NCBI GenBank assembly: GCA_964354495.1
Contig: CAYHAA010000010.1
Location: forward strand, 30,001-62,000
Direction of reading: 5' to 3'
Source of the DNA: an uncultured archaeon
Lineage (GTDB): Archaea > Asgardarchaeota > Thorarchaeia > Thorarchaeales > Thorarchaeaceae
DNA length: 32,000 bases
Positions 20,595 to 27,226 of this stretch are shown here, one piece after another. Position 1 is the first letter of the stretch; every line of letters starts with the position of its first letter. The notes beneath the pieces are model-generated. The model saw only the letters and a program-made list of their open reading frames with translations. It was not told the DNA's origin and made no database searches. Made by a program: the position numbers and the translations under genes.

Positions 20595-23558
20595 CTACAG
20601 ATCAATGCCCTTCTTCCTGAATCGCTGTTTGCAAATCTCCACACCAAGAATGGTTGGCAATGAAAGAAGCACACAGATCAGCCAATCATAGAGTGTGAGA
20701 GGTATGATATAGAAATTCAGTCCTACAGAGGAGAGAATCTCATTGACTACAGGGACATACATTAGCAGCAGATGTGCCAGATAGATGAGACCGAGAAATA
20801 TCGCAAAGATCCATGTACCAGGTTCACGAATGCTCTTGTGCAGTGGGAGATTGATACGTCGAATGAGAAGCACCATCACGCTCTCGACAATTAGGATAAC
20901 CGAGAGAAGCATACTAGTCGACTTGAGAAGAACCCATATTGGACCGCCACCATCGTAGAATGGATTGGCAGTGTCGGTGACAGGAGGTACGTAGGTTTCC
21001 CAGAAGCCAGAATTGTTCTCAGGAGTGACTTGAACAATGCCCAAGTATCCGGTGAATGTCAGGAAGTAGACAATGACAGCGCCAATGACCATGAGGAGGA
21101 TATTGACACCCATCACCTTGCCCAGATTTCGCGTGATAATCTCCTCACTGTCCCGAGGTTTCTCCTCCATGGCTCTTGGAGATGTACGGTCAAAAACAAG
21201 GGCCAAGCCTGGGAACGAATGAGTTGTGACAACGAGATAGATACTCTGCCACATGCTGAGAATCTCAATGTAATCAGGCATGATGAAGAGAGCACCAAAG
21301 AAGATGAAGCTCTCAAAGAGATTGATGGCCACATAGAAGTAAATCATCATACGAATCTTGTTGAAGAGACCTCTTCCTTGATGTACTCCGGTGACAATCG
21401 ATGCAAAACTATCATCAGTGATAACTATGTCCGCTGCTTCCTTCGCCACATCGGTACCCGTGATACCCATCGCGATTCCAGCGTCACTCATGGCCAGCGC
21501 AAGGGCGTCATTGACACCATCTCCTGTCATCGCGACAACTTTGTTCTGCTCTTGGTACCGCTCGACGATGATCTGCTTATGGTCGGGATTCACTCGTGCA
21601 AAGACATTGGTTCTGATGAAGTCGGCATCGCTGATGTCATGGATAGTGCTGCCTTCGGCCACAAGTGAATTCTGTTGATACACTCCAAGGTCTGTAGCGA
21701 TGGTCTTGGCTGTTGCAGCGGCATCACCTGTAATCATGACGACATTGATGCCTGCGCTGTGACATGCCTTGACTGCCTCTTTGACGCCATCTCGTGGCGG
21801 ATCAACAATGCAGGCAAAACCGAGATAGGTCAGGCCTCTCTCTGTGACTTGCCTCGCATTCTTTCCAGTTGGCACAGCATCCATTTGTTTGTAGGCCAGG
21901 GAAATTACCCTGTATCCTTTGCTGGCAAAGCCCTCGGCCAGACTGGCAACACGCTGAAGAAGCCCGCGGGTCATTCTAGAGGGGCTGTCTCTTCCATTCG
22001 AATACTCGCAGAGTGGCATGAGAACTTCAGTCGCACCCTTGACAAAGGCGACGAATGTGTCACCATCTTGACAGATCTTGGACATTCTCTTCAACTCAGA
22101 CTCGAAGGGGAACTCCTCAACAATCTTGTAACGTTTCTTGACAGCGGCCTCATCAATTCCACTCTTTCGGAATAGTGTTAAGAGGGCAGCATCAGTAGGA
22201 TCGCCTAATGGAGTCCACACAGTCCCCTGATCTGGAAGCTCCTCTTTGATGATCTCTGCATCATTAGCAAGACCACCGCAGTTGACCAGTCTGAATAGTC
22301 CTTTCCAAGCAAAGACGTCGTCTACTGGCTCTTCCTCTGTGTTAGCCACATTTGCATTGGTCGCACCCTTCAAGAGGTACACGCCACCAGAGGGGTCATA
22401 GCCATCACCTCTGACCGAGAAGAGGTTCTGGGTGTCCCAGCAGTACTTGACTGTCATCTGGTTTCGAGTCATTGTTCCAGTCTTATCACTACAGATGACG
22501 CTGACTCGACCCAAGCTCTCAACTGCTGACAGGTCTCGAATGATGACACCCCTCTTTGCCATTGCAAGCACACCCGTAAGCAGCACTATGGTTGTCAAGA
22601 GAGGTATATTGATTGGCATTATAGTCATTGCCCGAGTAATACCTGCACCTACCCGTTCTGATAGATACTGGATGCTGAAGTTGAGCGGATCACCCCTCAA
22701 GATGGGATAGACAAAGACCTGCCAGATGAATGAAATCGCCATAAGAATAATCGCAGCAATTCCCAAGTACTTTGCAAGTCTGTTGACCTTTCTTCTAAGT
22801 GGAATGTCTCCCGTATTCAATGCTTCTAGGGTTCCCTGAATCTTACCGATCTCCGTTCGTGGGCCTGTTGCAGTGGTGACAACGGTAGCCATTCCTGTCG
22901 CAACATATGTTCCGAAGAAGACCATGTTCAGTCGGTCTGTGAGAGGGGAGTCCTTCTGGACATGAGCATCCTCACTCTTGATTACTGGTACACTCTCGCC
23001 AGTTAGTGATGCCTCGTTGGTCATCAGATTTGACGATGTCACTAGCCGAGCGTCGGCAGGTATCCTATCGCCCTGTTCCAGTTTCACAATATCGCCCAAG
23101 ACAATGTCCAAGGGTGAAATGCTACATTCTTTGCCATCCCGAATGACTCGCGCTTCACCAGCCGATAACTTCTCTAGAGCCTCGAGCTTCTTTTGTGCAC
23201 GAAACTGCTGAACCATGGCGACTATGGCATTCACCGCAACTACCGCAAGCCAAACAGTCGCACCACCTATCGTATTGAAGTCAGATGGGAAGAGGAAGGC
23301 GATGGTGATCAGAGCAAAAGAGCTTATGATATAGATTGTAATGAGCCAATTCAGAATTGGAGCAATGTAGACCTGCCAAAATGCACCCTTGTAACGAGGA
23401 ATAGTATTGGGACCAGATTCCTCAAGTCGTTTCTTCGCCTCGTCTTTTGATAGACCAAGCGATGCATCAACTCGGAGGGATTTGAAGACATCTTCAAGAG
23501 GCGTTGAATGGTGCATTACGACTGTGCTATCTTCTGTGATGGCATCATCTGTTGACAA
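20595..23558 (-). CDS. P-type ATPase with a P2-like scaffold and non-canonical transport site
   Basis: TGES, DKTGT, KGATE, DPPR, TGD and GDGVND are all intact, with 10 TM segments. TM4 reads PINIP and TM6 reads VVTTHSFP. The TTG start is preceded by GAGGT. Confidence 0.93.
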   Translation of the reverse strand: MSTDDAITEDSTVVMHHSTPLEDVFKSLRVDASLGLSKDEAKKRLEESGPNTIPRYKGAFWQVYIAPILNWLITIYIISSFALITIAFLFPSDFNTIGGATVWLAVVAVNAIVAMVQQFRAQKKLEALEKLSAGEARVIRDGKECSISPLDIVLGDIVKLEQGDRIPADARLVTSSNLMTNEASLTGESVPVIKSEDAHVQKDSPLTDRLNMVFFGTYVATGMATVVTTATGPRTEIGKIQGTLEALNTGDIPLRRKVNRLAKYLGIAAIILMAISFIWQVFVYPILRGDPLNFSIQYLSERVGAGITRAMTIMPINIPLLTTIVLLTGVLAMAKRGVIIRDLSAVESLGRVSVICSDKTGTMTRNQMTVKYCWDTQNLFSVRGDGYDPSGGVYLLKGATNANVANTEEEPVDDVFAWKGLFRLVNCGGLANDAEIIKEELPDQGTVWTPLGDPTDAALLTLFRKSGIDEAAVKKRYKIVEEFPFESELKRMSKICQDGDTFVAFVKGATEVLMPLCEYSNGRDSPSRMTRGLLQRVASLAEGFASKGYRVISLAYKQMDAVPTGKNARQVTERGLTYLGFACIVDPPRDGVKEAVKACHSAGINVVMITGDAAATAKTIATDLGVYQQNSLVAEGSTIHDISDADFIRTNVFARVNPDHKQIIVERYQEQNKVVAMTGDGVNDALALAMSDAGIAMGITGTDVAKEAADIVITDDSFASIVTGVHQGRGLFNKIRMMIYFYVAINLFESFIFFGALFIMPDYIEILSMWQSIYLVVTTHSFPGLALVFDRTSPRAMEEKPRDSEEIITRNLGKVMGVNILLMVIGAVIVYFLTFTGYLGIVQVTPENNSGFWETYVPPVTDTANPFYDGGGPIWVLLKSTSMLLSVILIVESVMVLLIRRINLPLHKSIREPGTWIFAIFLGLIYLAHLLLMYVPVVNEILSSVGLNFYIIPLTLYDWLICVLLSLPTILGVEICKQRFRKKGIDL

Positions 23559-23756: not shown

Positions 23757-25739
23757 TTGGTGTACACTATGAATTACTACTGGGAGCCTGCACGCATTCA
23801 AAGAAGATCCAGAACAAATGGAACGAAGCTCATTGCGCTTGTCATTATTCTCATGGTCGTGGTATCCGCGGGGCTAGCGCTGCTAGGGAACATCAATCCC
23901 AACAGTATAGGCCCCACTGAAGCTGTGAGAGTTGCAGTATTGGACTCGGGTGTTGACATAGACTTCACTCTACAAGGGAGGATTGCTGCTCAACAGAGCT
24001 TCATTACAGTCGAAAATGGGTATAGCGCGACGGATACATCAGTGAGTGATGCAAAGCCGGATGATGTTCCTCATGGTACATTGATTGCTAAACAGATTGC
24101 ACAGGCCGAGAACGCTCTCATCATCAACGGCAAAATCCTTGACTATGAAGGCAGCGCAACGACAATGGGGCTGGTAGATGCAATTCACTGGGCAGTCGAG
24201 CAGAATGCAAGCGTCATCAATCTCAGTCTTGGTGGTTCGCCCACTTTTGGCGACCTGACAGAGGCAGCAATCGATTGGGCATTCTCGCAGGGGGTCGTCG
24301 TCGTCGTTTCAGCGGGGAATTCTGGTGACTACGGAGTGCCGGGTACATGTATAGAGTCGCCAGCAGTCTACATGAGATGCCTAGCTGTTGGCGCCTTGAC
24401 AGCTAATAACGAGCCTGCATATTTCACCTCCACTGGACCTGCAAGGGAGCTCTACATGAAACCGGACATCAGTGCTCTGGGCTACACAACGGATGGTGAT
24501 GGAACGCAGTATTGGGGGACAAGCTTTGCAGCTCCAAGGGTCTCTGCGGCTGCGGCACAATTGATTGGTTACTCTATGGCGAATAACATAACATGGTCAC
24601 CTGGGTCTATCATGGCAGCCCTGATGAGAGGAGCTGAAGTCCTGACTAGTTATCAACCGTATGAAGTAGGTGCAGGCAAACTGGACCTTCAGGGTTCCTT
24701 GACCCTCATTCAACAGCTATCATCAGCCGACGAACTGCCTGCAATCAGCTATGCATTTCCAGGAATGATACCCATAGACTATGAGCGGCTCTTTCAGGGA
24801 GATACATACAACTTCAATATTCGGCTCTTTACTGGAGGCGCGACTGTGTTCTCCACATATGTAGGCGCCGATAATTCGTCACTATTCGTTATCGACGACG
24901 AAATCATGGTGGACCAGATTGCCTCTGTTCCAATCTCTGTAATTGTTCCGAGTTCTGGCGTAAGCGATGTGATAGGCACAATCTCATTCACTTCGGAGGA
25001 CTTTGGAGATACCAGTGTTTTCATCTCATTCCCAGTTGGCACTCCTGTTGCCAGAGTCGCCTTTGACATCTCACATTCCACTTGGGACATAGACTCGATC
25101 TATGGGCAGTTCAGGGAGTTCTACAAGGAGTTGGTCGGCAATGATATATCAGTCACTGAGATTCGTAACAGCACTGCCACGACTCTAGACATTCTCCAGC
25201 AGTATGATGCGGTCGTTCTTCTTGATCCCTGTGTCTACACATCGAACGAGACTGATCCAGGGAATGTAACATTATTCTCCATTCCATTCTCAGAGGTCGA
25301 GAGGAATGCCTACGAAGACTACTACAATGCTGGTGGAGGGCTATTCATCGTAGCCTTGTCAGAATCGAGCCTCAATTTGTCAGCCTTGAATGATTTCCTC
25401 TCATGGACTGGATTCTCGTTGACGTCAATGGAAGTGCCCCTTGGAAACACGCCCGCACTCATAGATGAGATTAATGTTCATATCATCACATCTGGAGTGG
25501 ATGCCTTCCACTATCTGGGAGCAACCATCGAGATACCTGCGGATGGACACACACTTGCATTCTATGGAGGTATGCCCATAATGGGATACAAGGAGGGCGC
25601 TGGTGGTGGAAAAATCGTGGTGACAGGGAGCAACTTCATGCTCGATAACTGGGGGCTCCTCGGTCGGTACACAGGATCAAATGATAATACTCTCTTGGCA
25701 CGACGGATTGTTCTCTGGTGTGCAGATCAACTCGCATAG
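23757..25739 (+). CDS. S8 subtilase with an N-terminal TM anchor and a C-terminal site-1-protease-like/GATase-like domain
   Basis: Catalytic triad VAVLDSG, HGTLIA and GTSFAAP, with oxyanion SAGN. The C-terminal domain begins RVAFDISH. An ATG at 23769 is the likelier start. Confidence 0.88.
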   Translation: MVYTMNYYWEPARIQRRSRTNGTKLIALVIILMVVVSAGLALLGNINPNSIGPTEAVRVAVLDSGVDIDFTLQGRIAAQQSFITVENGYSATDTSVSDAKPDDVPHGTLIAKQIAQAENALIINGKILDYEGSATTMGLVDAIHWAVEQNASVINLSLGGSPTFGDLTEAAIDWAFSQGVVVVVSAGNSGDYGVPGTCIESPAVYMRCLAVGALTANNEPAYFTSTGPARELYMKPDISALGYTTDGDGTQYWGTSFAAPRVSAAAAQLIGYSMANNITWSPGSIMAALMRGAEVLTSYQPYEVGAGKLDLQGSLTLIQQLSSADELPAISYAFPGMIPIDYERLFQGDTYNFNIRLFTGGATVFSTYVGADNSSLFVIDDEIMVDQIASVPISVIVPSSGVSDVIGTISFTSEDFGDTSVFISFPVGTPVARVAFDISHSTWDIDSIYGQFREFYKELVGNDISVTEIRNSTATTLDILQQYDAVVLLDPCVYTSNETDPGNVTLFSIPFSEVERNAYEDYYNAGGGLFIVALSESSLNLSALNDFLSWTGFSLTSMEVPLGNTPALIDEINVHIITSGVDAFHYLGATIEIPADGHTLAFYGGMPIMGYKEGAGGGKIVVTGSNFMLDNWGLLGRYTGSNDNTLLARRIVLWCADQLA

Positions 25740-25996: not shown

Positions 25997-27226
25997 TTGG
26001 CAAGAGCAACCAAAGCATCTTATGTTGTTCTGGCGGCATGCATTATATCACATTTTATGAATCACATCTATACCGGAGTACTGTCACCCTTTCTAGAGAT
26101 CATTCAGTCAGAACTCGGCATCAGCTATACTATGATAGGTGTGGTTGCAAGCGCGGCAGTCCTCTCTATGACCATAGCACATCTCTTAGTTGGATATCTC
26201 GTGGACAGAGGATACCGCGACATATTCATCTCAATCAGTATTCTTGGCGCAGCCTTTGCAACACTTTTGACCAGCTATGCTCAGGACTTTGTATTCCTCA
26301 CCATATTTCAACTCTTTCTCGGAGTCGGAACCTCAGGATATCATCCGAGCTCATCTCCAGCACTGACTGAGATGTTCCCCAAGTCAGATCGGGCAAAGGC
26401 CATGGGCATTCAAGCAATGGGGGGCCTTGTGGGGATGGCAGTTACCCCCTTTCTCTGTGTGACATTGCTTGTTGTAATGAATTCATGGCAAGGAGTGCTC
26501 CGAGTCACAGCAATCTTTGGCTTTGCGGTGTTCATCCCGACACTGCTATTGATGAGAAGTTCATCTGTGAAGACCAGAGAAACAAGAATAGAGAGTTTGA
26601 ATCTCGAGGGACCAGATGGCTGGACAAAGAACTTTTGGGCAATGATGGTTGTCACAGGTCTGCGCGGAATGGCATTCAGATGCACGACTCTTCTAATGCC
26701 ACTTTACCTGGTCGTCACATATGGTGCTAGTACTGTTTCTGCAGGGGTTCTCACTGCGATCATGCTGACAGCCGGGCTGTTTGCAGAAGTAGTTTCATCC
26801 ATTCTCTCAGATAGATTACATAACCGAGTAGTGTTTCTCGTTATCTCGACAGGATTTGCAACACCAGCCATTCTGCTGCTGAACTTTTCATTAGAGCCAA
26901 TTCTACTGATGCTAGTCCTGATAGCCATTGGTTTCTTTTTCTTCCTGGGAGACCCAGCATTCACGGCACTTCAGACTGAGATTTCCCCCAGTAAATCACG
27001 GGGTATTGCCTTTGGGCTCATCTTCTCAGTTGGCGCATTACCCGGTGCAATTGCGCCCATTATCTTCGGGCTTATTGGTGACCTCTACGGGCTTGCCGCG
27101 TCCATACTGTTTCTTGTGTTCACTACTTTCCTTGCCACGGTTTTCTCCCTCTTTCTCAAGAATGATAAGTCCTACCTAGTGAGAGACTCTATTTCCATGC
27201 CAGAGGGTGTTATACCGCCTCCGTGA
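25997..27226 (+). CDS. MFS transporter
   Basis: About 12 TMs, GYLVDRG and SDRLHNR loop motifs, and YHP...ALTEMFPKSDRAKAMG. Confidence 0.9.
   Translation: MARATKASYVVLAACIISHFMNHIYTGVLSPFLEIIQSELGISYTMIGVVASAAVLSMTIAHLLVGYLVDRGYRDIFISISILGAAFATLLTSYAQDFVFLTIFQLFLGVGTSGYHPSSSPALTEMFPKSDRAKAMGIQAMGGLVGMAVTPFLCVTLLVVMNSWQGVLRVTAIFGFAVFIPTLLLMRSSSVKTRETRIESLNLEGPDGWTKNFWAMMVVTGLRGMAFRCTTLLMPLYLVVTYGASTVSAGVLTAIMLTAGLFAEVVSSILSDRLHNRVVFLVISTGFATPAILLLNFSLEPILLMLVLIAIGFFFFLGDPAFTALQTEISPSKSRGIAFGLIFSVGALPGAIAPIIFGLIGDLYGLAASILFLVFTTFLATVFSLFLKNDKSYLVRDSISMPEGVIPPP

Follow-up and report, generated by a model that had tools for sequence, protein, structure and literature searches.

Site-1 protease (S1P, also SKI-1 or MBTPS1; MEROPS S08.063) governs lipid synthesis through SREBP and the unfolded-protein response through ATF6, and it is also needed to form lysosomes and to mature arenavirus glycoproteins; the human enzyme is 1,052 amino acids (aa) long, with a transmembrane (TM) helix near residue 1,000. 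Its head (PDB 8UW8, 8UWC, 9CSD; PMC11231238, PMC12067269) consists of a subtilase (S8) domain reaching residue 478, with catalytic residues D218 and S414, a P-like beta-sandwich (479–616) and a GIFT domain (617–998), and among the proprotein convertases (PCSK family) this P-like plus GIFT head had been regarded as particular to S1P (PMC11231238). Here, we describe an open reading frame (ORF; positions 23757–25739, + strand) in a 32,000-nucleotide stretch of DNA (the window; contig CAYHAA010000010.1, positions 30,001–62,000) from an uncultured archaeon of the family Thorarchaeaceae, which a first-pass annotation had read as a subtilase with the architecture of S1P. Classical S8A subtilisins such as subtilisin BPN', and Tk-SP of Thermococcus kodakarensis (PDB 3AFG), have neither a GIFT domain nor S1P-type beta-sandwich packing and are secreted and made with a propeptide, whereas the thorarchaeal protein is anchored and lacks one. 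Conversely, the GIFT-domain relatives IFT52 (PDB 5FMR, 5FMS), OST48 and the bacterial GldG/DUF4350/ThuA-like proteins are not proteases, lack an S8 domain and a preceding beta-sandwich, and serve as scaffolds within intraflagellar transport, oligosaccharyltransferase or ABC-type systems. We consider it probable that the thorarchaeal gene encodes an active, membrane-held extracytoplasmic subtilase whose head is homologous to, and packed like, the mature S1P head, and that it belongs to a short clade within a larger Asgard superfamily.

The ORF comprises 660 codons from a TTG codon plus a stop, and residues are numbered from that TTG throughout. A family-alignment AlphaFold model of the protein (pLDDT 80, pTM 0.79) was compared with the PDB by Foldseek, as the first-pass annotation had proposed, and the two best matches were human S1P (9csd_A, E 4.4e-31; 8uw8_A, E 7.3e-30; about 740–760 columns, TMq 0.66–0.67), followed by Vpr (4.4e-21) and subtilisins (near 1e-18). 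Since the alignment spans some 740–760 columns, all three domains superpose as one body, and the superposition of the whole head on S1P covers 542 residues at 3.4 Å. In the model, the S8 catalytic domain (residues 56–320; 23922–24716, +) is followed by an Ig-like or P-like beta-sandwich (residues 328–430; 24738–25046, +) and by a GIFT domain of class-I glutamine-amidotransferase-like fold (residues 431–660; 25047–25736, +), which forms the C-terminal end of the protein. A separate model of residues 325–660 (pLDDT 94), in which the beta-sandwich is likewise all-beta, also had S1P as its best match (E 1.3e-14 and 2e-13; about 440 columns), with the GIFT domain of IFT52 next in line (3.5e-10), and aligned to S1P from residue 478, beta-sandwich included. 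A Foldseek-independent search of 48,161 representative chains gave the same ranking, with S1P the sole chain aligning well over both non-catalytic domains, and no further solved protein combining S8, beta-sandwich and GIFT was found in the PDB structure searches. S1P is thus the best match over the whole non-catalytic half and IFT52 is nearer on the GIFT domain alone, which indicates that the GIFT domain is generic and that the combination and packing of domains are S1P-specific. The head is predicted to have the order S8, P-like, GIFT, with the three domains packed together as in the mature S1P head.

Several observations weigh against this likeness or against the role proposed below. Taken by itself, the GIFT domain is closer to IFT52 than to S1P, and the S8 core resembles subtilisin BPN' (34% identity) more than it does S1P (22–23% over the whole head, within an overall range of 20–23%); human S1P ranks behind at least 60 other subtilase sequences by similarity to the thorarchaeal protein. 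The packing of S8 on GIFT is a prediction, and loops 188–203 and 223–234 of the catalytic domain were modelled at pLDDT below 50. In direct sequence comparisons, phmmer with the C-terminal half found no match in the PDB, a profile of 32 short-form C-terminal halves did not match S1P at E ≤ 10, and the Pfam models MBTPS1_3rd (PF23094) and MBTPS1_4th (PF23090) matched neither the protein, its C-terminal half nor 33 orthologues at E ≤ 10; a genome search with these two models also missed the gene. Finally, the function is read from anatomy only, and most subtilases require a propeptide for folding, so an enzyme made without one might need a helper. The S1P-like architecture described in the first-pass annotation holds for the order and packing of the three-domain head; it does not extend to the propeptide and the topology, as that annotation had itself noted, nor to the Pfam MBTPS1 models or the similarity of single domains. 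On the condition set there against the reading, a C-terminal domain that matches generic domains no less well than S1P, the outcome is mixed, with IFT52 nearer on GIFT alone and S1P first over the whole C-terminal half.

The generic GIFT relationship was visible in sequence, with the known GIFT domain of IFT52 (5fmr_A) matched at E 6.7e-6 by the short-form profile and at 4.1e-11 by a wider one. In Pfam, no model of the GATase1-like clan reached its curated cut-off in the thorarchaeal protein; the C-terminal half gave only a sub-threshold ThuA match (13.4 bits against a cut-off of 33.4), and among the 33 orthologues ThuA was weakly matched in 16 and DUF4350 in one. Against 1.84 billion representative proteins, the short-form C-terminal profile matched 1,248 at E ≤ 1e-3, many of which were 1,000–1,300 aa long with the matching region at about 480–820, and an S8 domain lay upstream of the match in all nine such proteins scanned with Pfam. 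None of the best 150 of the 1,248 matches (to E ~2.5e-17) was identifiable as eukaryotic S1P. The named S8-bearing family members that we looked up were all Asgard (Njord-, Odin-, Heimdall-, Hel- and Thorarchaeota).

These long Asgard subtilases (e.g. P0153 of Njordarchaeia, P0157 of Odinarchaeota, and P0182 and P0196 of Heimdallarchaeota) are unnamed and annotated only as 'S8 family serine peptidase', and they are homologous to the thorarchaeal protein over S8, beta-sandwich and GIFT (non-catalytic E down to 1e-48, hhalign probability 98%). Unlike the thorarchaeal protein, they have the full S1P layout: they start with a signal-like segment, have about 150 aa ahead of the catalytic Asp, and carry a stalk and a TM helix at the C-terminal end. 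In most of them the catalytic Asp lies at about 160–190, the Ser at about 380–400 and a hydrophobic helix about 30 residues before the C-terminus; P0153, with D172, S400 and a TM helix at 1014 in 1,048 aa, is an example, and a Tk-SP-type propeptide was found in one long form. With a Njord-type long form as the query, matches at E ≤ 1e-20 were found in 327 of 400 Asgard genomes, including 84 of the 85 genomes in the source organism's own family, mostly with two matches each.

Sequence similarity to S1P emerges only through these long relatives and grows as long forms are added. A profile of 50 full-length Asgard proteins (A3) aligned to human S1P in one stretch (S1P 186–851, E 3.4e-78), inside which lie all four of the segment pairs that the first-pass annotation had drawn up with S1P; its four segments of the thorarchaeal protein are all present in the translation of the ORF. 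For the non-catalytic part, a profile of short and long forms (A4) matched human S1P at E 0.022, and one of long forms only (A5) at E 1.7e-5 (S1P 545–732), a match that spans the P-like/GIFT junction. On GIFT alone, IFT52 outscored S1P with both A4 (4e-11) and A5 (2e-14). MBTPS1_4th scored above its cut-off in 19 of the 400 Asgard genomes and in none of 14 controls, always in long ORFs, and in the six such ORFs examined in full it scored about equally to DUF4350, ABC_transp_aux and IFT52_GIFT. In the ESM Atlas, the cluster nearest to the short- and long-form non-catalytic parts was the plant-type MBTPS1_3rd/4th at 0.86–0.87, a value too low, by the tool's own standard, to count as more than a lead.

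A rival reading is convergence, in which an ordinary archaeal subtilase and S1P would each have gained the beta-sandwich and a GIFT/DUF4350-type domain of the generic kind independently. We regard this as quite unlikely, given that the three domains occur in the same order and superpose as one body, beta-sandwich included, that the long-form non-catalytic profile matches S1P significantly across the P-like/GIFT junction, that the long Asgard forms also resemble S1P in their signal peptide, in the length of the propeptide and of the whole protein and in the C-terminal TM helix, and that the domain combination is otherwise absent from solved proteins. Common ancestry of the head with that of S1P is likely. 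The earlier proposal of a prokaryotic S1P relative accordingly gains support from structure and from the long-form profiles, whereas this short form shows no significant direct C-terminal sequence match. That the Asgard S8–P-like–GIFT subtilases share a direct common ancestor with S1P, which would make S1P an Asgard-derived 'eukaryotic signature protein' and the short form a derivative that is active from the start, is a possibility that we put forward tentatively.

We then placed the thorarchaeal protein within this superfamily. Its close homologues with names were all from Thorarchaeota except one Sifarchaeia record, and the GTDB species representatives contained 160 related loci, in Thorarchaeota and in Hermod-, Heimdall- and 'Promethearchaeota'-labelled bins, together with a second paralogue group at 35–38% identity. 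The same genome encodes a 670-aa paralogue with 37% identity (G000:C1:613865-615823; L082:1456-3465:+), a 973-aa long form (L120:602-3520:-; S8 at 170–457, GIFT at about 640–800) and a 1,461-aa form (L119:2259-6641:+) in which about 600 additional residues lie between S8 and GIFT. In the FastTree built from 72 family members, the 16 short forms, which have an N-terminal anchor and no propeptide, were split from the others by one branch with local support of 99; support in this tree is local only, and it has no outgroup and a midpoint root for drawing only, so that the ancestral form is not polarised. The 16 comprise two Thorarchaeota paralogue clades, one further sequence (P0132) and one Heimdall-labelled pair. 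The thorarchaeal protein thus belongs to a separate, stripped-down branch and is not the Asgard protein closest to S1P. This short clade, to which Thorarchaeota contribute two paralogues including the protein described here, lacks the signal peptide and propeptide region and the C-terminal stalk or anchor, and is set apart from the long members with the complete S1P layout.

The catalytic domain itself is well supported. Peptidase_S8 (PF00082) was the sole Pfam domain above its cut-off (118.5 bits against 21.8, E 4.6e-34, residues 56–305). The residues Asp63 (23943–23945), His106 (24072–24074), oxyanion Asn188 (24318–24320) and Ser256 (24522–24524; all +) are invariant in the 33 orthologues and in a 50-sequence superfamily alignment, with the order Asp, His, Ser kept. 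The domain shows the subtilisin alpha/beta fold and belongs to family S8 (S8A-like). The claim of a subtilase ORF carrying S1P-like segments was thus upheld.

Two further expectations, an N-terminal instead of a C-terminal anchor and a missing prodomain, also proved correct. S1P is a type I protein with a C-terminal TM helix and a short cytoplasmic tail, whereas the only hydrophobic segment of the thorarchaeal protein is at residues 24–44 (23826–23888, +), with a Kyte–Doolittle peak of 3.1 at residues 25–43 and no other segment above 1.6. The AlphaFold model has a helix at residues 24–37, and basic residues precede the hydrophobic segment, which we interpret as a signal anchor that keeps the N-terminus inside and the head outside. 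The first in-frame ATG, codon 5 at 23769, would yield 656 aa (Asp63 being residue 59 from it) and is the likely real start because an identical 656-aa protein (P0002) exists in the database. Between this ATG and the helix lies a basic, short, putatively cytoplasmic tail (23769–23825, +) with the conserved aromatic motif M-x-Y/F-Y-W, in which Y8 is invariant and W9 is present in at least 90% of the 33 orthologues; the conserved motif before the helix suggests that the N-terminus is retained and not cleaved. The helix and the first S8 strand are no more than about 12 residues apart, with the catalytic Asp already at residue 63, and there is therefore no space for a propeptide. S1P, by contrast, has a signal peptide and A/B prodomains that are removed at RxxL/K sites. 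At about 230 aa, the GIFT domain is also shorter than that of S1P (about 380 aa). The ectodomain contains eight N-glycosylation sequons against 4.7 expected from shuffles, an excess that is not significant (a fraction of 0.08 of the shuffles reach eight).

From this anatomy, we propose an enzyme that would be held on the cell membrane by its one N-terminal helix with the active site outside, and that would be made active instead of being licensed by a cofactor, because the inhibitory propeptide is absent. As in S1P, the GIFT domain may buttress the loops around the oxyanion-hole Asn and form a wall along one side of the substrate cleft. Most likely, the enzyme carries out limited proteolysis of cell-surface or membrane proteins (maturation, trimming or shedding), and probably not bulk digestion. 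An alternative is a secreted or loosely attached nutritional protease, whose N-terminal helix would be removed as a signal peptide and whose extra domains would do no more than stabilize the enzyme or bind substrate. The similarity of the S8 core to degradative subtilisins, the lack of a propeptide to restrain activity, and the fact that Thorarchaeota are generally thought to be peptide users speak for it. We nevertheless find it unlikely, as the hydrophobic stretch of about 20 residues is preceded by the conserved Y8/W9 tail, which suggests retention, and as only about 12 residues link the helix to the S8 fold. In addition, the GIFT domain of S1P restricts entry into the cleft (PMC11231238).

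A functional counterpart of S1P would make the first extracytoplasmic cut in tethered regulators, followed by intramembrane cleavage by site-2 protease (S2P, family M50). The S1P-like head, a membrane anchor that places the active site beside membrane proteins and the three M50/S2P-type genes in the genome are compatible with this role. However, M50 genes were present in all 14 control genomes, which makes the outcome of the S2P search uninformative, and none of the three lies near the subtilase gene. Transporter and metabolic genes make up the conserved neighbourhood, which is part of a long syntenic block and contains no linked regulator; no candidate for a membrane-tethered regulator was identified, and the protein sits in the branch that lost the S1P-like propeptide and C-terminal anchor. 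The S4 pocket of S1P is acidic (T286, D312, D315, N348) and binds the P4 Arg of RxxL substrates (PMC12067269), and by alignment it does not appear to be conserved: D312 corresponds to Pro162, D315 to Gly165, N348 to Ser201 and T286 to Thr135/Thr136, with residues 159–162 of low model confidence. An invariant Asp166 adjoins Gly165, in the loop that starts with those low-confidence residues. With D312/D315 at Pro162/Gly165 and Asp166 adjacent, an RxxL preference cannot be inferred. The SPRING-type cofactor and the SREBP/ATF6-type substrates are features of S1P to which no counterpart is assigned in the thorarchaeal protein. Overall, a functional counterpart of S1P seems very unlikely: the observation in the first-pass annotation and the likeness of the head hold, and nothing ties the gene to the suggested processing of membrane-bound regulators, M50 being universal and the neighbours syntenic. 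Separately, two of the low-confidence loops of the catalytic domain, 188–203 (24318–24365) and 223–234 (24423–24458), align to S1P loops 338–348 and 372–384, which contact the GIFT domain of S1P and become ordered only with SPRING (PMC11231238).

Regarding the neighbourhood, a divergent P-type ATPase gene (20595–23558, −) lies upstream across a 198-bp gap, and a major facilitator superfamily (MFS) transporter gene (25997–27226, +) lies downstream across a 257-bp gap, followed by PHP, a small ORF and TPR genes. The P-type ATPase and MFS genes adjoin the subtilase gene in nearly all orthologous Thorarchaeota loci with enough flank. This adjacency could suggest that the protein, like GIFT in GldG/ABC_transp_aux, is an outer accessory subunit of one of these transporters. 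Synteny across Thorarchaeota extends over the entire block from PanB to the TPR genes, however, so the adjacency looks like general synteny without a dedicated module, and the paralogue and long forms are located elsewhere; furthermore, the invariant catalytic residues argue for a working protease. A transporter subunit is therefore highly improbable, and assignment of a function from operon context was rejected on the same grounds of block synteny.

A search of the available literature found no paper linking S1P to Asgard archaea. With an Asgard-wide family that has the S1P head, and whose long members have the S1P layout, phylogeny can now address directly where S1P came from. If the proposed ancestry is true, the S1P head, and through the long forms also the signal peptide, propeptide and C-terminal anchor, would be older than eukaryotes, and a secretory-pathway protease would join the eukaryotic features with archaeal roots. 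The advance from the thorarchaeal gene alone is modest, as it lies on a side branch. The short form, a naturally occurring, minimal version of the S1P-like head that has no propeptide, could nevertheless serve as a tractable model for how GIFT supports the active site and affects substrate access.

Some members of the wider family depart from these layouts. Two long proteins (L135:1288-5058:-, 1,257 aa; L137:727-4551:-, 1,275 aa) carry a zinc-ribbon after the C-terminal membrane helix, which would be a cytoplasmic tail module without an S1P counterpart. One ORF with an open 5' end (L078:1-3627:+; at least 1,209 aa), from the Thorarchaeota bin HM6_B34, has eight hydrophobic segments upstream of S8–GIFT and may be a polytopic membrane domain fused to an S8–GIFT protease. 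The C-terminal half of the GIFT profile also gave tandem matches, eight in P0164, a giant DUF4350 protein of Krumholzibacteriia (3,484 aa), and ten in P0198, an uncharacterised protein of the crinoid Anneissia japonica (1,886 aa).
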